A stretch of DNA of 64,000 nucleotides from Verrucomicrobiota bacterium (GTDB lineage Bacteria; Verrucomicrobiota; Verrucomicrobiia; Limisphaerales; CANJXF01), in the NCBI GenBank assembly GCA_038214755.1, contig JBBQRQ010000003.1, positions 1-64,000 of the forward strand. Reading direction: 5' to 3'. Made by a program: the position numbers and the translations under genes. The notes under the pieces are model-generated. The model searched no databases. It was not told the origin of the DNA and saw only the letters and a program-made list of their open reading frames with translations. Positions 10,521 to 58,428 of the stretch are shown piece by piece. The first letter of the stretch is position 1. Every line of letters begins with the position of its first letter.

Positions 10521-10619
10521 TAGTGGGGCAGACATCCTGTCTGCCAACGGGGCTTCCAGCCCCAGACCACGATTCGCGGGCAAGATGCCCGTTTGGCAGG
10601 CTGGAAGCCTGCCCCACTA
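10521..10619. repeat. GTAG-like REP doublet (GGGCAGAC..GTCTGCC / GGCAGGCT..AGCCTGCC family)
   Basis: Four nested hairpins with ends TAGTGGGGCAG and CTGCCCCACTA. Same architecture as the element inside smc. Confidence 0.85.
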
Positions 10620-23939: not shown

Positions 23940-24401
23940 ATGCTCACACTACTTTTGACTTTAGGAACAATCGTTTTCTATTTCTCAGCGGAATTTTTAG
24001 TAAAACGGAGAACCTTTAGATGCATCTTACAAGTTGTTTTGATGTTTGCTCTCGCGATGATAACACTTAATGTTGGACGAGGAGTCGGCAGTGACCTCGC
24101 TCGGGATGATGTTGCTCGGGCAGTTCGAGAAGTAGCTGACGAGTTGTTGGAGATGTCTCGATCGAATACAGTTAGTCAATTGCAAGACAGCTTGAAAATC
24201 GTCAAAGTGGACCTGCCAAACGCTACTGGAGCGATGGCGCGCCCGTGGCCGGGCAGCAGTTCGAATACACCTTCGACTGGATTGGCAATCGACTCTCCAC
24301 CGCTGCGGGCGGCGATGAAAGTGGAGCAGGCCTCCGGCCTGCCTCTTATACGCCGAACTCTCTCAACCAATACACCCAACGCACTGTGCCAACCTGGGTA
24401 A
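23940..24401 (+). pseudogene. Membrane protein (orphan immunity-like), true C-terminus replaced at 24213 by Rhs core DNA read out of frame
   Basis: Two TM segments. From 24213 the DNA matches the Rhs core copy starting at 21785. Confidence 0.55.
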
Positions 24402-43476: not shown

Positions 43477-43851
43477 ATGACTGAACCGCTGGCTCTGGTG
43501 TTTTACGAAAAATTGCTGCCCGGCCAACAACTGGTCAATCGTTTGCAGGATTTGGGCTATCGCGTCGAGGCCGTGACGGACGCGGCGTTGCTGGAAGAAC
43601 AGGCGCAACAACAAAGCCCGATGCTGCTCGTCGCAGAATTTCCCGCCGAGAAAAGTGCCGTGCCCGATGTTGTTACCGCGTTGAAAAAAAATCCGGCGAC
43701 CGCGCACATTCCGGTGCTCGCCTATGTGGTGGAAGCCAGTCCGGCGTTTCAGGAAATTGCCCGGAACGCCGGGGCAAATTTAATTGCCAGCGAGGCGCAT
43801 GTCCTCGATCAATTGCCTCAATTGCTCGAACAAGTTTTACGGCTGGACTAA
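43477..43851 (+). CDS. Atypical single-domain receiver (CheY-like) protein
   Basis: L...GYRV, P.LLV and LKKNPAT.HIPVLA...A..AGA pattern. The expected phospho-Asp position looks like Glu. Confidence 0.7.
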   Translation: MTEPLALVFYEKLLPGQQLVNRLQDLGYRVEAVTDAALLEEQAQQQSPMLLVAEFPAEKSAVPDVVTALKKNPATAHIPVLAYVVEASPAFQEIARNAGANLIASEAHVLDQLPQLLEQVLRLD

Positions 43852-43891
43852 AAGATTCCTCAACCGAGATTCGAATTCGTCACTTCAAAAT

Positions 43892-44707
43892 ATGTCTATC
43901 CCCGTCGTCAAACTGGATCGCGGCATTCACGCAATACATCTGTTTTATCGGATTGATCGCGTTCGCTGGACGCAATTACCGGCCGGCGAATCGCAAAGGA
44001 CCCGTGAAAAACTGGAGAAACTTTGCTCGGCGAATTCCGCCGTGTCGCATCCGCAATTGCGAAGTTACGCGACGGTCGGCGGCAAAGCAGACCTCGCATT
44101 TTTTCTCCTTGCCGCTGAGTTGGCGCAGATCAGCCAATTGCATCGCGATTTGGAAAATTGTTTTCCCGCCGGAACATTGGTTTCCGTTTTCAGTTATCTC
44201 AGCGTGACGGAGCTTTCCGAATACATGACGAGCGATGAGGAAAATCAGCGGATGCTTTTGCTCGAAGAAAAATTATTGCCCGACTCCGACGAATTCAAGA
44301 AACGCCTCGCCGAAATTCGCGACCGCATGGCCAAGTACGAACATTACCGGCTGTATCCAGAGTTGCCCGATTGGGAAGTGATGGGTTTTTATCCGATGAG
44401 CAAACGGCGCCTGGGAAATGACAATTGGTATTCTCAGGATTTCGCCACGCGCAAAAAATTGATGGCCGGACACGCGCGAGTCGGGCGAAAATTTTCCGGC
44501 CGCATTTCCCAACTCATTACCGGCTCGACGGGTCTCGACGATTGGGAATGGGGCGTCACTTTGATGGCCCATCAGGTCGACGCGCTCAAAGATATTGTTT
44601 ACGAAATGCGTTTCGATGAAGTGACCGCGCGCTTCGGCGACTTCGGGCCTTTCCACGTAAATCTGCGTTTGTCTCCCGAAGATTTGTGGGCGCATTTGCA
44701 TTTGTGA
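43892..44707 (+). CDS. chdC: Coproheme decarboxylase / chlorite dismutase family protein
   Basis: FYPMSKRR...NWY, M.GH..VGR, GSTGLDDWEWGVTL and VYEMRFDEV. Confidence 0.88.
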   Translation: MSIPVVKLDRGIHAIHLFYRIDRVRWTQLPAGESQRTREKLEKLCSANSAVSHPQLRSYATVGGKADLAFFLLAAELAQISQLHRDLENCFPAGTLVSVFSYLSVTELSEYMTSDEENQRMLLLEEKLLPDSDEFKKRLAEIRDRMAKYEHYRLYPELPDWEVMGFYPMSKRRLGNDNWYSQDFATRKKLMAGHARVGRKFSGRISQLITGSTGLDDWEWGVTLMAHQVDALKDIVYEMRFDEVTARFGDFGPFHVNLRLSPEDLWAHLHL

Positions 44708-44904
44708 AATTCTCAAAGGTGGAGCGGAATTCCCCCAAAGTAGCGCGAGACTCCGTCAAGCCCTGACATTTTCCTCCCGCGCAAAAATTTTAAGATTGAT
44801 CTGGACGAAATCGCGCTCCGCCGTTTTTTGCTAGCGGACAAAGCCTTCCTCATTCCTTGAGAATTGGTTTGCCCTGCGCGGGGAAATCGCGGTTTACTGG
44901 AGCG

Positions 44905-45942
44905 GTGATTGACGAGTTTGTCCCCGACATCGACATTCTAAATTCCGAAGGCGCAATCCAGCACCGGCTGCATCAGCGCGCGGCCAGTGTCGCCTTGGAG
45001 CAATTTGGCCGTCGCGTTTTTATCCGCGCCGTGGTCGAGATCTCGAATTTTTGCCGCGAGAATTGTTCTTACTGCGGGATGCGTCGGGACAATCGCACCC
45101 TCGCCCGCTTTCGGGCGCACCATGAACAAATCGCTCAACTGCTCATTCATCATCGGCCCAAAAGTGTGACCGATGTAAACATTCAAGCTGGCGAGGATCC
45201 GGTGGGGGTTCGCGAAATTGTCATCCCGCTGATCAGGACACTTCGCCGTGAAACCTCCCTCGGCATCAGCGTTTGTCTTGGCAGCCTGAATCCAATTCTT
45301 TACTCCGAACTGCAAGCGGCGGGCGCTTCCATTTATATCATCAAGTTTGAAATCGGAGATCCCGCCCATTACCGCGAAATGTTGGCGCCCGGAACCTATG
45401 CAGAACGAATTGAAAATATTCGTTATCTCGCCGGACACGGCTGGAAAGTCAGTTCCGGTTTTATCGCAGGATTGCCCGGCCAAACTGCAAATCGTCTGCT
45501 CGCTAATTTTAAATTGGCGCGTGAGTTGCCCCTTGATGGATGCAGTGTGAGTCCATTTATTCCCGGCGACGAAACGCCCTTGAGCACCGAGCCGACGGCC
45601 AGCATTGATTTGACTTTGAATTGCATGGCATCGCTTCGTTTGATGCGCCCGGACTGGGTCATTCCCGCCGTCAGCGCGTTGAATCTGGCGGAACCGGGAT
45701 GTGGCTATCAACGCGGGCTCCGCACTGGCGCAAATTTGGTCACGATTAACCTGACTCCATCGGAAATGCGGGACGATTATCTCCTCTACAAACGCGATCG
45801 GTTCATTATGACCGAGGAAAAAATTCTTTCCGCAATTTCTGCCGAAAGTTTGGTTCCATCGCAGCAAAGTCTCTCCGAATTTTATCGGGCGCAAAATCCG
45901 ACGGCGATTTTTTCCCGCCCATCCATCGCGGCTCTCGCCTAG
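44905..45942 (+). CDS. Radical SAM protein, HydE/PylB/BioB-like
   Basis: RAVVEISNFCRENCSYCGMR (CxxxCxxC), QAGED, SGFIAGLPGQT, PFIP...TPL and GAN....NLTP...R..Y.LY. Confidence 0.88.
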   Translation: MIDEFVPDIDILNSEGAIQHRLHQRAASVALEQFGRRVFIRAVVEISNFCRENCSYCGMRRDNRTLARFRAHHEQIAQLLIHHRPKSVTDVNIQAGEDPVGVREIVIPLIRTLRRETSLGISVCLGSLNPILYSELQAAGASIYIIKFEIGDPAHYREMLAPGTYAERIENIRYLAGHGWKVSSGFIAGLPGQTANRLLANFKLARELPLDGCSVSPFIPGDETPLSTEPTASIDLTLNCMASLRLMRPDWVIPAVSALNLAEPGCGYQRGLRTGANLVTINLTPSEMRDDYLLYKRDRFIMTEEKILSAISAESLVPSQQSLSEFYRAQNPTAIFSRPSIAALA

Positions 45943-45952
45943 CTGACTGTGA

Positions 45953-46049
45953 GGAGCGCGGACAGCCTTGTCCGCGCGAATTCAGAGGAATGAAAAACGC
46001 TTAGGTTTTCGTCTATTTCAAAACGCACAGACAAGGCTGTCCGCGCTCC
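45953..46049. repeat. REP-like doublet (GGAGCGCGGACAGCCTTGTC family)
   Basis: Inverted arms GGAGCGCGGACAGCCTTGTC and GACAAGGCTGTCCGCGCTCC. Confidence 0.88.
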
Positions 46050-46124
46050 ACTTGGTTTGGTCACGGCCCAGGATGCGTCCCGAATGAACGAGTGTGATTC
46101 AAACTGGCGGTCAGTTGCTCGGTT

Positions 46125-46275
46125 GTAGCGCAGGATTGCATCCTGCCGTATCGCAGGTTTTCAACCTGCGTGATGTCGCGAGAACGGGAGGCCTTCGGGA
46201 ACCAGAGACTTTTTATCGTTGCGACATTCAGCCGGTTTCAAACCGGCGATAGGGCTGGATGCAATCCTGCGCTAC
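46125..46275. repeat. GTAG REP doublet (GTAGCGCAGGATTGCATCC family)
   Basis: 19-bp perfect arms plus internal hairpins GCAGGTT..AACCTGC and GCCGGTTT.AAACCGGC. Confidence 0.88.
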
Positions 46276-46358
46276 GTTTGACCGCCACTTGAAATCACAC
46301 CCGGAATGAAGTGTCTTCTTTCTTTTTTGGTGGGAGGCATTTACCTTTTCGCAAAGCC

Positions 46359-46691
46359 ATGTTGCACGAAACCATTTCAAAAATCGAAGCCAAACTCCGA
46401 ACGGCCAATTCAATCAAGGAGGAACATCGATCAGAACTTCTCGGTCTCCTTTCCACTCTGAAAAATGAAGTCGGCGCTCTCTCGCGCACCCACGATGAGC
46501 AGGCGCAAAGCATTGCCGGTTTCGCCGAACTTTCCGCGCACGAAGCGACCCGCGCGAAAAAAGATCCAGAGTTATTGAAGGTTTCTCTGCAAGGACTCGC
46601 CTCCTCGGTGGATGGATTTGAGAAATCTCATCCAGAACTGGTGGGCATTGTGAATCGCATTTGCACGACGCTCTCGAACATGGGTATTTAA
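46359..46691 (+). CDS. DUF4404-like helical protein
   Basis: C-terminal FEKSHPEL..IVNRI...LSNMGI. Confidence 0.75.
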   Translation: MLHETISKIEAKLRTANSIKEEHRSELLGLLSTLKNEVGALSRTHDEQAQSIAGFAELSAHEATRAKKDPELLKVSLQGLASSVDGFEKSHPELVGIVNRICTTLSNMGI

Positions 46692-46724
46692 AAAAGAACC
46701 GCGGCAAAAGCCGCGGCTCCTTTT
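46692..46724. terminator. Probable bidirectional intrinsic terminator
   Basis: AAAAG-AACCGCGGC-AAAA-GCCGCGGCTC-CTTTT between convergent genes. Confidence 0.65.
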
Positions 46725-46781
46725 ACTAATTCACAACGCTGGAACAACGCCGAGTGGGTCAGGTTCCGCGACGCTTGGGAG

Positions 46782-47399
46782 TTATTTCACTTCGAGACGA
46801 TTATCGACAGAGGTAACGCCGGAAACCGCTTTGGCCTGCGTTTCGAGATTTTGTTTTTCAGTTTCACTGCGCACGGCGCCTTTCAACGTCACCTTTCCAT
46901 CCCGGGTGATGATGGTGATATTTTTGGCGGCGATAGAATTGTCCGTTCCCAGCGAGTTGACAATGGTCCGCCGAATATCCCGGGTGATTTGTCGATCAGC
47001 GTCAGACTTGCCTTGATCTTGAGCGGTCAACCCAGTGGATTTCGTATTCGCAGTGCCAGCGGCCTCGTCGATTTTTACTTGAGAATTGACCCCAGCTTTT
47101 GCCGCGTCAGCTTGCGCTTCGACTCGTTTCTTCTCTTCGTTGATCTGAGCTTTTTGCGCGTCGGACAATTCTTCGATTTGTTTTTTCTCGGCTTTGGCTT
47201 GCGCGTTTATTTGGGACTTCGCCTGATCGGAGGCCTGCTCAATATTTTTTTTCTCCTGATTCAGCGCTTCCTTTTGCGCATCTTTGGATTGCTCGATTTG
47301 ATCCTTCTCGGTCTTGGCCGACTCTTTCACTCCATTGTCCTGTTTATTGCAGCCCACGAGAGCCAATGAGGCTGTGGCTAGAACGATTATCTTTTTCAT
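46782..47399 (-). CDS. BON-domain lipoprotein
   Basis: MKKIIVLATASLALVGC lipobox; coiled region; D..IT..I and GKVTLKG.V...A..VSGV.SVDN.LEV. Confidence 0.9.
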   Translation of the reverse strand: MKKIIVLATASLALVGCNKQDNGVKESAKTEKDQIEQSKDAQKEALNQEKKNIEQASDQAKSQINAQAKAEKKQIEELSDAQKAQINEEKKRVEAQADAAKAGVNSQVKIDEAAGTANTKSTGLTAQDQGKSDADRQITRDIRRTIVNSLGTDNSIAAKNITIITRDGKVTLKGAVRSETEKQNLETQAKAVSGVTSVDNRLEVK

Positions 47400-47679
47400 G
47401 TTGCTCCTTTTTAAGTTATTTTGTTGCGACCTATTGATCATAGCATCACGGCGAGAAACGATTCGGTTCAAGAGGCGAAGCCCTGTTTTTTTATCGGGGA
47501 GAAAACTGACAGGGCGATGAGCAACACGGCGTCAGTCGATTGTATTTGTTTTTAGCCATTGCGAGACGACGCGAAAATTGAAGCAGCCAAAAGCGGGTTC
47601 CGGCTCCAACTCACTGAATCAAGAAACAGAACTATGGCGATCCCCGGGTGTTGAGTTCGCTCGAAGAATTTGAAACGCG

Positions 47680-50600
47680 CTATTTTGCCGTGACAATCTC
47701 CAGCGTCTCCTCGCGGGTGTGCGGCGCGTCTTCTTCCGCTTCGATGGAATCGCTCGCGGTCATGTTGACCAGCGACATCGCCGTGTGATCGGTTACGTCT
47801 TTTTCCGCTTTATGGAATTTCACACTCACGATTTTGCTCACGCCATGTTCCTGCATCGTCACGCCATACAAAACGTCCGCCATGCCGATCGTGCGTTTGT
47901 TGTGGGTGATGATGACGAATTGTGAGTGCGCGAGGAAACGTTGCAGCACGCGCACAAACCGATTGATGTTTGATTCGTCGAGTGGCGCGTCCAATTCGTC
48001 GAGCACGCAGAACGGGCTGGGCTTCACCTGGTAAATCGAGAAGAGCAGCGCGACGGCGGTCATCGTTTGTTCGCCCCCGGACAAAAGTGAAATGGTCTGC
48101 AATTGTTTCCCCGGAGGACGCGCCACGATGTCGATGCCGCTTTCCAAAACATCACCTTCATTCACAAGAATCAAATCCGCTTTTCCACCGCCGAAAATTT
48201 CGGTGAACAACAACCGGAAGTTGTCGCGGATTTTCTCAAACGTCTCCGCGAACATCTCCTGCGTCTGCGTGTTGATGCGATTGATCACTTCGAGCAATTG
48301 TGTTTTTGCCTGGGTCAAGTCGTCGTGTTGCGTGGTGAGGAAGGTGTGGCGCTGTTCGGTTTCTTCGTATTCTTCAATCGCGACAAGATTCACCGGCCCC
48401 ATTTCCTCAATCCGTTTTTGTAACGCGCTGACTTGCTCGGCGACCGCATTCCAATCCGTCGAAGCGCCGTGCGCCGCCATTTCTTCTGGAGTGAGCGTAT
48501 GAATTTTCGCTGCGCCTTCATCGGCGAAAGTAATCGTGATGCACTCGCTGCGAACGTCGTCGAGATTCACCTGATATTTTTGCTGAACTCGTTCGCGCAA
48601 ATTTTGCACCGACATATTTTTCTGCGCCAACTCCACTTCGAGGGAGCCCCGCTGCTGTTGAATTTCACTCAGGCGTCGGCGTTGCTCGCGCAAATTTTCT
48701 TCACGCGTCGAAACTTCGTTGTCCTCCGTTTCCTTCTGTCCCATCAACTCGGCGGCTTGCGTGTTCACTTGATCGCGGTCGTGTTGCAACGAATCAATCT
48801 TCTGACGCGACTCAGCAATTTCCGATTCCGCCTGCGCTTTGCGATTTAGAAACGAAGCGATTTCATTTCGACGCTGCTCGGCGAGATGAGTCAGTTCGCG
48901 AATTCGATTTTCCAATGGCTGTTTCTGATTGCGGAATGACGAACAAAGTTGTTCCTCCGTCGCGAGCGCGACTTTGGTTTCCGTCAAAGCGGTGTTCGCC
49001 GCGTCTCGCTGCTGCCTCAATTGTTCCAGCGCGGCATTAAATTCATTCACCTGCGCCTGGAGTTCGCGCTCGCGATTTTCGAAATCGCCAATTTGCGACG
49101 CCAATGCTTCGCGCTTCTGATTACCTTCCTGCTCCTGCGCTGCGAGACTCGTCACTTCGTAAACCACCGTGTCGATTTTCTGGTGCAACACGCGTTGTGA
49201 ATTTTGCAGCGCGTTGAATTCGCCCTGCCGCGTCGCAATCGCCACTTCCTGCGTGCGCAAATCCGTTTGCGCCTGCTGCAAGCTCGCCTGCAACTCGGTC
49301 TGTTCGTTGAGCAACGCGCCTTTGTTGCGGCTGATTTCATTGACCTGTTCTTGCAGTGCGCTCGCCGCAGTTTGCAACTCGGCGATTTGATTTTTGCGTC
49401 CGAGAATCGACGACGCATTTCCAGAACCGTTGCCGTTCGCATTTCCGCCCGTGAAAATTCCGTGGCGATTGAGCAACTCGCCGGTTTGTGTAACGAAATC
49501 AAACGCGCCATTGCTCTCGCGAAAAGCGGAAATGGCCGTGGCTAAATCAGGAACAATCAAAGTCTCTCCGAGCAAACGTTGGAGCAGAGGTTGAATAGAA
49601 GGATCGGCTTCGATGATCCGTAGGGCAGACATTCCTGTCTGCCGGTGCGCGGGACTTCCTAGTCCCGCGTTTTCAGATGGCGCCGTCTCGGAACTGGAGA
49701 CTAGGGAGTCTCCCCCACCGGCAGGCTGGAAAGCCTGCCCTACGAGTCCGAGCGCCGCAATGCTCGCGCGACCTTTTTTGTTCGCGCTCAAATCCGTCAG
49801 AATTTGCTGCGCGGATTCCGGTTGCTCGGTGAGAACCAGTTGAAGGTTGTGGCCAAGTGCGGCTTCGACCGCGACGACATATTCGTTGGGGACTTTGATT
49901 TTGTCTGCGAGCGAGCCGAGAACATTTTGCGCGGTCTTCAAAGCAGCCAAAGTTCCCGCGCTGAAACCTTCATGCGATTCATTCAGTTGTTCGAGCACAT
50001 TGAGCCGCGAACGCTTTTCCGCTTGCTGGCGCAAAACATCGTCAAGCCGTTGCGTGATCTGCGTCAGTTCGATTTGAATTTCCTTCAGACGTTCTTGGCG
50101 TTGTTCGACGGTGCCGCGCTGCGTTTGCACGCTGAGTTTCTCCGCCTCAACATTCGTCGCAAATTCATGCAAGCGCGTTTCGAGGCGTGTGCGTTCTTCT
50201 TCCAACTGAATTTTTTCCGCGGAAAGTTTTTCGAGCCGAACGACGTTGCCTTGCTTCTGCATGTCGAGCGCATTGATTTCGTTGCGGACGCGCGTGAGTT
50301 GTTGCGCGGCGGCGAACAAATCCGACTGCGCTTTGCGAATCGCTTCCTGTTTTGCCGACAATTCACTCTCAACACCTGTGAGCGCAGTACGTTTTGTTTC
50401 CAGATTTTGTTTCTGTTGTTCCAGCGCACTTTGCGACGCCGTCAATTTCTCGGTGACGACCGCGAGTTCCTGTTCCGCCGCGAACCGCCGCTCCTCGGAT
50501 TGCGTGATTTCCGTCAGCGCCTTGTGATTCTGCGATTCGAATTCCCGCAAACGTTCCTCATTGAAATGAATCCGGCTCTCGTGCCGATCAATCTGGCTCT

Positions 50601-51498
50601 TCAATTCCAACCCGCGTTGCTGCGTCTGATTGATCTGCTGCTCCAATTCGGAAAGGCGTTCCCGCAATTGCGCGATTTCATTTTCGCCTCGCAAAACACT
50701 TTCGGAACAAACCTCGATTTCCACGCGCAATTTTTCCACCGACAACTGCCGCTCGCTGATTTCACCCTGCAAAACATCGAACTGATGCCGCGCCAGTTGC
50801 GTGTCGAGATGCTGCAATTCCTGCGCGAGTTGTTTGTAGCGTTTCGCCTTGCCCGCCTGCCGTTGCAACGAACCGATCTGCCGCTTCACTTCGCGAATCA
50901 AATCCGCCACGCGCAAAAGATTTTGGTCGGTGCTTTCCAATTTGCGCAGCGCCTCTTTTTTCTGCGACTTGAACTTCGTGATACCCGCCGCTTCCTCGAA
51001 AACCATCCGGCGATCATCCGGTTTGCTGGAAAGAATCTGCGTAATATTTCCCTGCGCCATGATGCTGTAACTCGTCCGCCCGACGCCCGTGCCCATGAAA
51101 AGTTGCTGAACATCCTTGAGGCGGCACGGCGTTTTGTTGATGAAATATTCGCTGCCGCCATCGCGAAAAACGCGCCGCGTCAAAGTCACTTCGTCGTAAG
51201 CCACCTCCACACCCGCTGTCGTCAGATGTTCGCCATCGACGCCCCCAATCGTCAGGGAAACTTCCGCCATGCCGAGCGGCTTGCGACCGTCCGTGCCGTT
51301 GAAAATCACGTCCGCCATTTCGCCGCCGCGCAACGCCTTGGCCGATTGCTCGCCCAGCACCCAGCGAATCGCGTCCGAAACATTCGATTTGCCACAGCCA
51401 TTCGGCCCGACAATCGCGGTGACGCCGGGCTGGAAATTGAGGGAAGTTTTGTCCGCAAACGACTTGAAACCGAGCACGGTCAAATTCTTCAGATACAT
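47680..51498 (-). CDS. smc: Chromosome segregation protein SMC
   Basis: GFKSFAD, GPNGCGKSN, coiled coils, hinge, LSGGE and LDELDAPLD. ATG at 51498. Confidence 0.98.
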   Translation of the reverse strand: MYLKNLTVLGFKSFADKTSLNFQPGVTAIVGPNGCGKSNVSDAIRWVLGEQSAKALRGGEMADVIFNGTDGRKPLGMAEVSLTIGGVDGEHLTTAGVEVAYDEVTLTRRVFRDGGSEYFINKTPCRLKDVQQLFMGTGVGRTSYSIMAQGNITQILSSKPDDRRMVFEEAAGITKFKSQKKEALRKLESTDQNLLRVADLIREVKRQIGSLQRQAGKAKRYKQLAQELQHLDTQLARHQFDVLQGEISERQLSVEKLRVEIEVCSESVLRGENEIAQLRERLSELEQQINQTQQRGLELKSQIDRHESRIHFNEERLREFESQNHKALTEITQSEERRFAAEQELAVVTEKLTASQSALEQQKQNLETKRTALTGVESELSAKQEAIRKAQSDLFAAAQQLTRVRNEINALDMQKQGNVVRLEKLSAEKIQLEEERTRLETRLHEFATNVEAEKLSVQTQRGTVEQRQERLKEIQIELTQITQRLDDVLRQQAEKRSRLNVLEQLNESHEGFSAGTLAALKTAQNVLGSLADKIKVPNEYVVAVEAALGHNLQLVLTEQPESAQQILTDLSANKKGRASIAALGLVGQAFQPAGGGDSLVSSSETAPSENAGLGSPAHRQTGMSALRIIEADPSIQPLLQRLLGETLIVPDLATAISAFRESNGAFDFVTQTGELLNRHGIFTGGNANGNGSGNASSILGRKNQIAELQTAASALQEQVNEISRNKGALLNEQTELQASLQQAQTDLRTQEVAIATRQGEFNALQNSQRVLHQKIDTVVYEVTSLAAQEQEGNQKREALASQIGDFENRERELQAQVNEFNAALEQLRQQRDAANTALTETKVALATEEQLCSSFRNQKQPLENRIRELTHLAEQRRNEIASFLNRKAQAESEIAESRQKIDSLQHDRDQVNTQAAELMGQKETEDNEVSTREENLREQRRRLSEIQQQRGSLEVELAQKNMSVQNLRERVQQKYQVNLDDVRSECITITFADEGAAKIHTLTPEEMAAHGASTDWNAVAEQVSALQKRIEEMGPVNLVAIEEYEETEQRHTFLTTQHDDLTQAKTQLLEVINRINTQTQEMFAETFEKIRDNFRLLFTEIFGGGKADLILVNEGDVLESGIDIVARPPGKQLQTISLLSGGEQTMTAVALLFSIYQVKPSPFCVLDELDAPLDESNINRFVRVLQRFLAHSQFVIITHNKRTIGMADVLYGVTMQEHGVSKIVSVKFHKAEKDVTDHTAMSLVNMTASDSIEAEEDAPHTREETLEIVTAK
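49619..49744. repeat. 126-bp GTAG REP doublet translated in frame within the SMC hinge
   Basis: CGTAGGGCAG...CTGCCCTACG with four internal hairpins. Encodes VGQAFQPAGG...QTGMSALR. Confidence 0.92.
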
Positions 51499-51692
51499 GG
51501 CGAATAAGAAGCCAAAATCGCGAAATAAAGTAAAGTGAAAAACACCATATGAAGGGGTAAGTTGGTTGGAAACGCACAAGTAATGGGCAATTCTCCCAGT
51601 GGCTTAAAAAGCTTCTTCTTTTTCGCACTCGACAAGAACAGCACCCAACACGCTAATCTTGTCTCAAGATATTCAATTCCCCCAACGACGTT

Positions 51693-52688
51693 ATGGCCAT
51701 CGTTCAGAAATATCCACGAATCGACGAACCGGATAAATACGCTGGTTATCTTGACGACAGGAAACTAGTTTCCCATACGGAAACTCTCGAAGAAGACGTT
51801 CTGAAAAAAATCATTGAGCGTTCAGTTGATTACGCCAGTAAAAAATCGAGTCGCGCCATTCTCGAAATCCCAGAGAAAGCCACGGATGAACAAGTACGCG
51901 AAATATATCTTAAAGAGGGAGAATCTCTTCTGATTTATTTCCGGAAGTATTGTGGCGACCCCGCTTCAACGGCCTATGAGTGTCATGGACGGCACTTTTC
52001 CGAAATAGCGAAAGAACAGTTTCACAGTCGGACGCTTCAAAAAGAGCGAATGAACTCTGGTTGGCGTTACCAGCGCATAGCTTACCAATGCGCTGAGGCA
52101 TCTAAGCGCTTCAAATCAGTTTCTGATATCGGTGCCATTGAAGCAGATTTTAATATGACGGTAGAAACGGTGGACTGTCCCGGAATTCCTGTTGTGAATA
52201 TTTACATTTCGGTGAAAAATCGTACGAATACGCTCGGTGGACAGGATTGGCCGAAGGCGATCTACGCACTTGAAGAGGTCGCCTAGAGCGACAAAAACCG
52301 AAGCGGTCCCTACCTTTGTGTTTTTGGTATTGCTATGGAACACGGTCAACGAAATATCAAAAGGAAGCGTAAAACCAAACAGCCCTATTCATTCAACACA
52401 GAGATTTGGCTGTCAGATTTCTTATGGCCATTTGTGGCGAATTATCCTTATGAAGCAATGATGCTCGCTGTGTCAGACTTTTTTGCCGAACAAGGTGTTA
52501 CGATAGAAAACCGAACAATCGGGGTTCCAGTTCCCGACGTATTGATTGAATCTTTTGGCGAAGAATGTCGCAAGCTCGGTCTGGTGGACGGGGAAGGTAA
52601 ATTTAATGATCGGCGAAAGCTGGTAACTTTCTTCTGTACGAAGGCGCAAAAAGCGCTCAGAGTTAAGAAGGCGAAATCACCGACATGA
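51693..52688 (+). pseudogene. Putative type II restriction endonuclease with in-frame TAG at 52284-52286
   Basis: ORFs 51693-52286 and 52335-52688 share a frame (EEVA*SDKNRSGPYLCVFGIAM). Has an EADF...ISVKNR nuclease-like motif and overlaps the methylase start. Confidence 0.7.
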
Positions 52689-53644
52689 ACAAAAATTCCA
52701 ACGGTCATATGCAGGATTGCCGCATTGTCTGCGGTGATAGTCGGTTGGAAATGATTCCATTAAAGAGCCAGGTTGACCTCATAGTAACTTCGCCTCCTTA
52801 CGCCGATGCACGGCGGAGTCACTACGACAGTATTCATCCTGACCAGTTCAAAAATTGGTTTCTCACTTTCCACGAACCATTCTTTGAAGCACTCAAACCA
52901 GAAGGTAGTCTGGTTATCAATATTAAGGACAAAGTCGTTGAGGGTGTCCGGCATCGTTATGTTTGGCGCACGATTGAAGCTCTTTGTGAGAAAGGCTGGT
53001 TTGCTATCGATGATTACATTTGGAGGAAACCGAATCCTATGCCGGGATATTGGCCGACTCGCATGAGAGACGGTTGGGAGTATTGCTTCCATCTAGCAAA
53101 GTCAAAGCGACCCTACATGAATCAGGATGCAGTCCGAATCGCCGTAGGTGACTGGGTAACATCACGCCTCGCAAAGCTTGGAGAGAATGATTTGTCCCGA
53201 CATAATTCAGCAAATAAAAGCGGATTTGGTCGTGATCTTTCTCGGTGGGTCGGGAAACAAACCGTTTTACCTCCGAATGTAATAAGCGCAGCTTTGGTGG
53301 GAAAAAACAAAGGTCATCCAGCCGTCTTTCCAGTCGATTTACCGGCATTCTTCATCAAGCTGCTTTGCCCTGAAAATGGGTTGGTTGTTGATCCATTCGG
53401 CGGAAGCGGAACCACCGGTATAGCTGCTCTGGCACTTTCGCGCCGATGTGTTTTGATAGATAACAACCAAGAATATTGCCGAGTGGCAAAGGAAAGGCTC
53501 AAAAAAGAAGCCGCTGCGCTCCCCGGAGAAATAGTCATTACCAAAAATTCTCTTTATCCACATTGTGGCGTGCCAGTGCCGGATGATCCTGCAAAACAAA
53601 TCGCCTTCTTTGAGAAACCGCCGAAATACCGAATCAAAAAATAG
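52685..53644 (+). CDS. DNA amino-methyltransferase (N4-C/N6-A, beta class)
   Basis: Motif IV TSPPY precedes HPAVFP and motif I VDPFGGSGTT. Confidence 0.93.
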   Translation: MNKNSNGHMQDCRIVCGDSRLEMIPLKSQVDLIVTSPPYADARRSHYDSIHPDQFKNWFLTFHEPFFEALKPEGSLVINIKDKVVEGVRHRYVWRTIEALCEKGWFAIDDYIWRKPNPMPGYWPTRMRDGWEYCFHLAKSKRPYMNQDAVRIAVGDWVTSRLAKLGENDLSRHNSANKSGFGRDLSRWVGKQTVLPPNVISAALVGKNKGHPAVFPVDLPAFFIKLLCPENGLVVDPFGGSGTTGIAALALSRRCVLIDNNQEYCRVAKERLKKEAAALPGEIVITKNSLYPHCGVPVPDDPAKQIAFFEKPPKYRIKK

Positions 53645-53660
53645 GTTCAGAGTGCGGTTC

Positions 53661-54150
53661 GGTTACGAAGGAACATCTGATGATACCGCGGCGTTTTGAT
53701 GATCTCTTCCGGTTCGGGGCGATGATTGTATCGAGTTGCGAAACGCTGACGCTGAATGCGCCATACTTTTCCTGCCACGCAAATAATCTTTGGTCAGGAA
53801 AATTTTCGTGAATCCATTTCGAGGAACCGCCTTTGATGAGTTGCATGGCTTTGGCGATGGGCATGGTGGCGGGCAGCGAGAGAAGAATATGCACATGATC
53901 TGCAGCTCCGCCGATTTCCATGGCGCGCATTTTATTTTGCCGCGCGATGCCGCCAAGAAATGGCCAAAGTCGTTCTCTTAATTGCGCAGTGATGAGTGGA
54001 CGGCGTTCTTTGGTGCTGAAAACGCAATGGTGATACGAACTCACGTAGGACATGGCGATATTTCTGCCGTCCCTTCGGGACTTGTCACGTTGGAATTCCA
54101 ACCCGGCGTTGAAACGCCGAGCTATTTGCGGAACGTCCCTTCGGGACGGG
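53661..54150 (-). mobile_element. tnpA: IS200/RAYT-like HUH transposase remnant with flanking hairpins (ATG 54053, 3' end deleted)
   Basis: HCVFSTK.R.P, DHVH (HUH), KGGSSKWI and WQ.KYGAFSVS. Degenerates before YI.NQ. Hairpin repeats at 54060-54150 and a remnant at 53661-53685. Confidence 0.88.
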
Positions 54151-54169
54151 GAATGATGCGCGAGTGTTG

Positions 54170-54430
54170 TCGAGAATTTTACATCCATTTGTTTCTGAAA
54201 AGGCTCCACCAGTTTCAGTTTGGAATCTTACCGCTGTTCCGAAGGAACATCTGACCATAGCCCGGCGTTTGAACGCCGGGTTTCATGCGCCAAGATGCCG
54301 AGTCCCGAGGGGACGGCTGAAATCAACTTCACCAATAATATCCCGTTGTCTTTCATCTCGTGATTTTTTGACCACGACGTGAACTCCTTCGAAAATTTTA
54401 TCGATGATGTTGTGCCCGGTTCAGGAACAT
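54170..54430 (-). repeat. Decayed tnpA 3' end plus hairpin unit, copy 1 of an approximately 250-bp direct repeat
   Basis: Aligns by eye with 57070-57317. Minus strand encodes EFTSWSKNHEMK, resembling a tnpA C-terminus. Confidence 0.75.
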
Positions 54431-58079: not shown

Positions 58080-58298
58080 TTAAGGAAGCAGGACTTTCCA
58101 GAATGCGAACGTGTGCTTTTTCAACAACGCGGTGAACTCCTCTTGAAAAGTCATTTTCCGATGATGTTCCTCCTGGTTCTTGATGTAGGCGATGATCGTT
58201 TCGAGTTGCGAAACGCTGACGCTGAATGCGCCATACTTTATCTGCCACGCAAATAATCTTTGGTCAGGAAAATTCTCATGAATCCATTTCGAGGAACC
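58080..58298 (-). pseudogene. tnpA: Second fragment of the same HUH transposase (C-terminal half)
   Basis: GSSKWIHENFPDQRLFAWQIKYGAFSVSVSQLETIIAYIKNQEEHHRKMTFQEEF. Nearly identical to 53717-53830 where they overlap. Confidence 0.85.
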
Positions 58299-58315
58299 GT
58301 GGTGCCGAATCGTAT

Positions 58316-58345
58316 CGTAGGGCAGGCTTTCGAGCCTGCCGGTGA
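58316..58345. repeat. Single REP of the smc-insert family
   Basis: CGTAGGGCAGGCTTTCGAGCCTGCCGGTG matches the reverse complement of 49716-49744 apart from two loop bases. Confidence 0.85.
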
Positions 58346-58428
58346 GCGCGAATTCCTAGCCCGACTTGGCGGATTCGAGGAGTTTAGCTGAATTGGATTT
58401 GCAAAAAAAAATCTATTTCAACAACGCC

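Follow-up and report, generated by a model that had tools for sequence, protein, structure and literature searches.

Palindromic repeats that lie in frame within functional genes are known from Rickettsia as RPEs (RPE-1 and others). To our knowledge, the tagged ones among them are of the CGTC type, and no dedicated transposase has been reported for them. In the REPIN-RAYT systems, also called REPtrons, two inverted REPs with a GTAG tag stand about 100 bp apart, and a cognate RAYT is flanked by the same repeats (PMC8266576; bioRxiv 10.1101/2021.07.10.451892; 4ER8). According to Bertels and Rainey, REPINs are almost exclusively extragenic (bioRxiv 10.1101/2021.07.10.451892), and the mechanism by which they spread is described as unresolved (Corneloup 2021, PMC8266576). 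In Pseudomonas chlororaphis, the REPORTH study found that the REPIN family at a conserved extragenic site follows the prevailing RAYT, and its authors consider that REPINs may be overwritten (bioRxiv 10.1101/2024.10.14.618302). The insertion of GTAG REPs into reading frames of a verrucomicrobium is already published: Di Nocera, De Gregorio and Rocco (2013) tabulate, in about 70 rows, GTAG REPs that lie in frame in genes of Opitutus terrae, many of these genes being concerned with DNA repair. Dimers or groups make up over half of all inserts in that study, in-frame dimers code for 15-50 residues in housekeeping and DNA-repair genes, and REPs are also found at nearly the same site in two Xanthomonas recB genes (PMC3733652).

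The element described here lies in the smc gene of a Verrucomicrobiota bacterium of the order Limisphaerales (GenBank assembly GCA_038214755.1; genome G000 below), in a window of 64,000 nucleotides that corresponds to positions 1 to 64,000 of contig JBBQRQ010000003.1. The names of homologues likewise point to Verrucomicrobiota, near Limisphaerales. The features of the window are collected in Table 1. As with the Rickettsia RPEs, a palindrome is found in frame in a functional gene; unlike them, it is of the GTAG type and has a RAYT. Identity with a CGTC-tagged RPE was rejected because the tags of the smc element are GTAG and CTAC. The likeness to the O. terrae repeats extends to the GTAG tag, the short stems and the heterodimers, and the O. 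terrae GTAG-19 peptides match the repeat in the smc loop of genome G005 (family C, see below). Unlike the O. terrae REPs, the subfamily of the smc element (family A) has extra inner hairpins, and smc is absent from the O. terrae table (term search of the whole Additional file 3); the accessible text of that paper reports no loss of native codons, no occurrence of several families in one loop and no REP-coded conserved residue (PMC3733652). The smc loop resembles the REPORTH sites in that one place carries different REPIN families in different genomes; unlike those sites, which are intergenic and belong to one species, the sites described here belong to essential proteins, extend over a genus and an order, and are constrained by reading frame and folding (bioRxiv 10.1101/2024.10.14.618302).

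Table 1. Repeats and coding features of the smc locus and related repeats, in window coordinates.
Feature	Position	Strand	Remarks
smc, chromosome segregation protein	47680..51495	-	1271 aa from ATG at 51495; open frame to TTG at 51579
REP heterodimer (REPIN)	49620..49743		124 bp, GTAG to CTAC
REP arm 1, first in mRNA	49720..49743	-	GTAG tag + 7-bp stem; codes insert start
Inner hairpin, 7-bp stem	49696..49713		DNA folding
Inner hairpin, 9-bp stem	49648..49669		DNA folding
REP arm 2	49620..49643	+	GTAG tag + variant 7-bp stem; reverse strand codes insert end
Codons M-S-A-L-R	49618..49632	-	REP sequence except last two bases
Intergenic doublet, sister subfamily (GTGG tag)	10523..10617		pattern search + folding
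Single arm, same subfamily as smc element	58317..58340	+	adjoins IS200-type transposase gene fragment

The smc gene is intact around the element, as had been predicted. Its open frame (47680-51579, minus strand) matches SMC_N at 4e-67 and SMC_hinge at 2e-20, and the element lies in the hinge between KGRASIAAL and IIEADP without closing the frame. The product has the SMC_N head, the coiled coils and the standard-fold hinge of an SMC protein, and G000 has a single hinge match at E<=1e-15; across 401 genomes, the hinge search covers the best 150 of 465 matches. In SMC hinges, an extended linker connects the two subdomains (PMC5290277), and from its position the REP-bearing loop is presumably that linker. 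The AlphaFold model of the hinge (40 rows, pLDDT 85.7) has the standard hinge fold, with 5H69 as its best structural match (Z 20.6, rmsd 3.5, 235 residues aligned). Residues 121-150 of the model have a pLDDT of about 50, and the block holding the REP-coded M-S-A has a pLDDT of 81, with a strand at 157-158 and a helix at 159-162. The model suggests that the insert, which is expected to be translated because smc is a core gene present once and its frame is open, would likely form a mostly disordered loop whose last residues fill a conserved position of the hinge. Three of the four CTA codons of smc fall in the element.

The element is read on the minus strand in frame with smc and lies within residues 583-626 of the 1271-residue protein. 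Each arm has a GTAG tag with a 7-bp stem, and an inner hairpin comes next to it, which makes four hairpins: the outer REP stems at 49624-49643 and 49720-49739, and the two inner ones. Either DNA strand folds at about -44 kcal/mol (z -8.5 and -8.3), a value equalled by 0 of 200 shuffles. The original prediction described an element of 126 bp at 49619..49744, a multiple of three, with four hairpins. Its place and hairpins stand, and its length has to be corrected: GTAG and CTAC are constant across 26 doublets of the subfamily while the adjoining outer bases vary, which sets the conserved unit at 124 bp. Divisibility by three is thus a matter of where the boundary is drawn, and the reading frame is kept because native codons have been lost. 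A multiple-of-three rule is also at odds with the lengths of the coding doublets, which leave a remainder of 1, 0 and 2 in 18, 6 and 2 cases, against 36, 21 and 14 for the other doublets. The differences between the arms had been attributed to compensatory changes. Both arm variants recur throughout the genome, in 26 and 4 exact copies, which points to a heterodimer of two REP variants rather than to compensatory change at the smc locus; arm 1 is the commonest unit of its subfamily. A MITE with target-site duplication was also rejected, as there is no duplication at the smc copy and no repeated target in the flanks of the 26 doublets.

The two relatives that had been noticed at 10521-10619 and 58316-58345 are indeed present (Table 1), and for neither of them does an open frame extend 60 codons to both sides. 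A diverged lone unit of the wider family is found at 24321-24343. Two broken IS200-type transposase genes of the window, at 53634-54209 and 58083-58355 (both on the minus strand), share a near-identical stretch. The former lacks the usual C-terminal part; the latter is a C-terminal fragment that ends at the single REP arm.

A fuzzy pattern search of G000 found 249 units of the wider family in 145 elements, of which 97 are inverted doublets; a single shuffled genome gave no units. Family A accounts for 53 units and 26 doublets (reversed control, 0). Unlike the extragenic REPINs, 40 of the 145 elements, the smc copy among them, are found where the frame is open over 100 codons or more to either side, and RAYT cassettes occur in frame in host genes; the other 105 are outside such frames, so that the family is mostly extragenic. 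Among 21 such host frames that were scanned, four had no match at E 1e-40, and the named matches include MutS, IleRS, AlaRS, NrdJ, ArgD, SucA, CysJ, CopA, DnaE2, UvrA and RecJ. The genome has 17 matches to Y1 transposases. One of them, an intact RAYT on contig C149, has doublets of family A on both sides; it scores 94.7 bits against NF047646, the REP-associated tyrosine transposase (cut-off 80), and it matches the E. coli TnpA-REP (4ER8) at E 3e-8 with the HUH and Tyr motifs aligned. As the doublets flank this RAYT, and in view of the established biology of REPtrons, the C149 protein is the probable mobiliser of family A. The smc element thus has the features of a GTAG-type REPIN, namely a tag at the foot of the stem-loop, an inverted pair within 200 bp, dispersed copies and a RAYT with the same repeats, and its interpretation as a GTAG-type REP doublet that is predicted to be translated in frame is upheld.

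The loop between the two anchors has 44 residues in G000, compared with 22 in the congeners G001 and G004 and in P0003. In 120 homologues its length varies from 20 to 65 residues, and 22 is the commonest value (19/120). A 22-residue loop of the LQ[ST]LDF type is found in 10 of the 120, both within and beyond the genus. Together these observations suggest that the 22-residue loop is likely the ancestral state. When the two lengths are compared, the 42 codons of the element are seen to replace about 20 native codons, with a net gain of 22 residues and not 42, so that the event was no plain insertion.

The codons M-S-A-L-R stand in for the conserved x-A-L-x, and the alanine three places before the right anchor, which is kept in 120 of 120 homologues including the query, is coded by the REP in G000. 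It aligns with alanines in the solved hinges of P. furiosus and G. stearothermophilus. The suggestion that MSALR replaces native hinge sequence is thus borne out by the loop alignment, by the REP-coded alanine and by the ordered block of the model. Excision of 124 bp would shift the frame, and excision of 126 bp would leave two linker residues, as compared with at least 20 in 120 of 120 homologues. Since the REP codes for the invariant alanine, a clean excision would break the hinge. A self-splicing intron or an intein was rejected on similar grounds, as taking the element out would either change the frame or cost the protein its invariant alanine and at least 18 linker residues. The native codons of G004 at the 3' edge match the end of the REP at 9-10 of 11 bases, which suggests microhomology as the route by which the REP could have taken over the edge codons.

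The same loop carries other repeats in relatives of G000: a family B doublet in G003, two B doublets in tandem in G034, a family C doublet in G005, and family D doublets in G024, G101 and G147. Each family is abundant in the genomes in which it fills the loop. Counted with at most one mismatch in 61 genomes, family A has 53 units in G000 and none in G001, G003, G004 and G005, and is present in 7/61 genomes; family B has 63 units in G003, 76 in G034, 1 in G000 and none in G001 and G004 (27/61); and family C has 15 in G005, 1 in G000 and none in G001 and G004 (11/61). Family D, counted with at most two mismatches in five genomes, reaches 51 units in G024, 81 in G101 and 177 in G147, with none in G001 and G042. 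These three bearers are of one genus and may share a single event. In G003 and G005, a RAYT-like gene stands between doublets of family B and family C, respectively; both genes score below the curated cut-off. Comparison of orthologs had been proposed as a check on whether the loop is empty or carries other families, and both situations are found. The four genomes G001, G003, G004 and G005, which have no family A units, all have different loops, so that the refuting case, the same peptide in genomes without this REP family, is not seen among them.

Each family starts two to three codons past the left anchor and leaves zero to six native codons on the right; the hairpin is intact and the flanks are gone. 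In P0009, a family A peptide with a shorter middle part occupies the same two junctions as in G000, and the tree test rejects G000 and P0009 as a clade (p-AU 2e-12). It does not reject clades that unite the REP-bearing congeners (p-AU 0.11 and 0.44); a single loss of the native loop and repeated losses are both compatible with the tree. Judged by the repeats themselves, the smc loop has received at least three families within the genus. Possession of a family does not entail its presence in the loop: G016, with 19 family A units, and G052, with 90 family B units, have no doublet there. A hairpin screen was passed by 10 of 113 distinct smc loops, one of the ten being from G009, a genome on which none of the main conclusions rests. 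The linker is found to hold 20-79 residues, a range that marks it as tolerant of such lengths. No SMC domain was found in any of 104 long RAYT-containing proteins, a weak negative because long proteins crowd that search, and no RAYT was found in the retrieved smc loci. Tandem arrays of a 7-base unit occur in the same loops as REP doublets, both in smc (L007, L052, L054, L060) and in uvrA (L290, L292, L293). Many rows (L068-L122) belong to a large clade with a conserved smc loop of 38-39 residues and no hairpin, apparently a stabilised longer linker.

Twelve further in-frame sites of G000 in recognisable housekeeping genes were compared, four of them in 30 relatives and eight in five congeners; CysJ had a distant match in just one of the five congeners and was left out of the count, so that 11 sites were scored. 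At six of these (IleRS, AlaRS, RecJ, ArgD, MutS, UvrA), the loop carries another repeat in one or more congeners; such repeats were recognised by eye as hairpin doublets or 7-base arrays, genome-wide counts being confined to families B, C and D and to the MutS type of G004, which has 1 unit in G004 and 8 in G007. The other five (SucA, NrdJ, DnaE2, CopA, rhamnulose aldolase) show no second family. In G005 and G024, the loop of AlaRS is occupied by an entire in-frame RAYT cassette. The number of native codons lost, estimated by eye, is 20 at SMC, about 7 at IleRS and RecJ, 6 at AlaRS, 5 at ArgD, about 4 at the aldolase and about 3 at NrdJ; DnaE2 carries a clean insert, no loss is evident at CopA, and SucA is ambiguous. 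Target DNA of about 3-20 codons has thus been lost at seven of the ten sites that have a native comparison; MutS and UvrA were left unscored, every congener having a repeat there.

By joining these observations, the history of the smc element can be outlined. It is a GTAG-type REP doublet that replaces about 20 native codons; it was probably placed by the RAYT of its family and would be translated as a mostly disordered loop with an end predicted to fill the hinge position. The RAYT would cut and transfer strands on single-stranded DNA, bringing the doublet into the loop, and target DNA would be lost during its arrival or soon afterwards. Purifying selection would then retain only those events that are in frame and spare the structural edges of the loop. 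At the 3' edge, the native P/S-A-L-R codons resemble the REP end at 9-10 bases, and this likeness might let the REP take over the A-L codons. The result would be a ratchet, in which the element is locked against a clean exit and yet open to overwriting by the next family. The smc loop is likely, then, to be a standing niche that is repeatedly refilled by a hairpin-cutting transposase system.

An alternative is that doublets insert anywhere and survive in tolerant loops, and that native codons are lost later by ordinary deletions, with no need for one family to overwrite another. This possibility, which we consider unlikely, overlaps with the explanation by RAYT placement and differs from it solely in the route of the loss of native DNA. 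The clean insertion at DnaE2 and the small losses at NrdJ and the aldolase agree with it, as does the position of the native-loop congeners, which are interspersed in the best tree. The shared sites also accept unrelated 7-base arrays and whole RAYT cassettes, which speaks for tolerance of the loop and not for sequence targeting, and Di Nocera et al. suggest neutrality in flexible loops (PMC3733652). Random small deletions, however, would more often strike the hairpin or leave native residues in the middle, unlike what is seen at the smc edges.

Whole loop alleles might also pass from one lineage to another when the conserved flanks recombine, with the REP carried along, which would account for edge-to-edge replacement and for the identical junctions that G000 shares with the distant P0009. 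Such homologous exchange is nevertheless very improbable, as the P0009 flanks resemble G000 no more than the flanks of other homologues do, each loop matches a family abundant in its own genome, and the identity of the left-flank DNA to congeners is flat up to the loop (46-55/60 in all bins); the nearest right-flank bins are lower against G001 and G004 (41-43/60) and not against G005. Hardly any weight can be given to removal or bypass of the hairpin at the RNA level, or to an assembly error at the repeat. The mRNA strand of the element does fold strongly (-89 kcal/mol, z -6.7), and the assembly graph branches in the left arm. Yet the frame is open unaided, removal would shift it or delete the invariant alanine, and the same arrangement is found in other genomes. 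In the one public sequencing run that contains this DNA, possibly its source, two error-free contigs of equal depth (20 and 20.7) extend from 48600 to 49648 and from 49620 to 50800. Their overlap falls within the left arm, and the element is not bypassed by any joint. At the left junction, only 30 bases are covered inside the element, just below the 31-base bridging rule. The contigs support the insert, lack of support from reads having been named as a refuting case.

The explanation by RAYT placement and overwriting can be extended, more tentatively, to the order as a whole. The RAYT systems of the Limisphaerales might hold fixed loops of essential proteins (SMC, IleRS, AlaRS, MutS, UvrA, RecJ, ArgD) as heritable niches in which new families overwrite old ones edge to edge. 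In-frame RAYT cassettes could be the source of the doublets or an intermediate, and REP ends might be recruited for conserved residues and thereby locked in. This wider proposal is possible rather than probable. If it holds, coding sites with their fixed frames and edges would record the positions at which REPIN movement cuts and joins DNA. Unlike extragenic sites, orthologous coding sites provide an empty allele that is conserved, edges that are known to the codon and more than one family per place. Arrival usually costs target DNA, and any model of RAYT action must account for that. The smc case would also represent a small exaptation, in which selfish DNA supplies an invariant residue of a core protein. 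A search of the published literature, with most subscription papers and the bioRxiv supplements outside its scope, found no paper on REPs in SMC, none in which one family replaces another within essential proteins and none in which a REP takes over a structural residue that is conserved.

The surroundings of smc contain further genes. Just upstream, on the opposite strand (51693-53644, plus), two open reading frames without a Pfam match are followed by an N6/N4 DNA methylase, and the group looks like a restriction-modification module. Downstream (43784-47471) lie a chlorite dismutase-family gene, a radical SAM gene, a DUF4404 gene and a gene for a BON-domain lipoprotein. Elsewhere, a RAYT cassette with family C doublets lies in frame in a host gene of G005 (L328, G005:C13:14900-16000), the frame of which, judging by its motifs, reads like that of a replicative DNA polymerase III alpha subunit. 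RAYT domains are likewise found in frame within a DinG-like helicase (G000:C64:9583-12492) and PriA (G000:C88:17593-20601). An open frame of 1440 codons that includes a UDP-glucose pyrophosphorylase domain contains, in frame, a whole REP-RAYT-REP cassette (L329, G000:C33:13406-17725); a similarly named protein of O. terrae has a GTAG-19 dimer at residues 715-734 (PMC3733652). Quentin (2018) set aside RAYT proteins of unexpected length, regarding them as fusions or errors of annotation (PMC6006769). Long RAYT-domain proteins recur among P0123-P0223 in methionine synthase, IspG, the Val, Leu and Ala tRNA ligases, DinG, DnaE, CarB and subunits of type I restriction enzymes.
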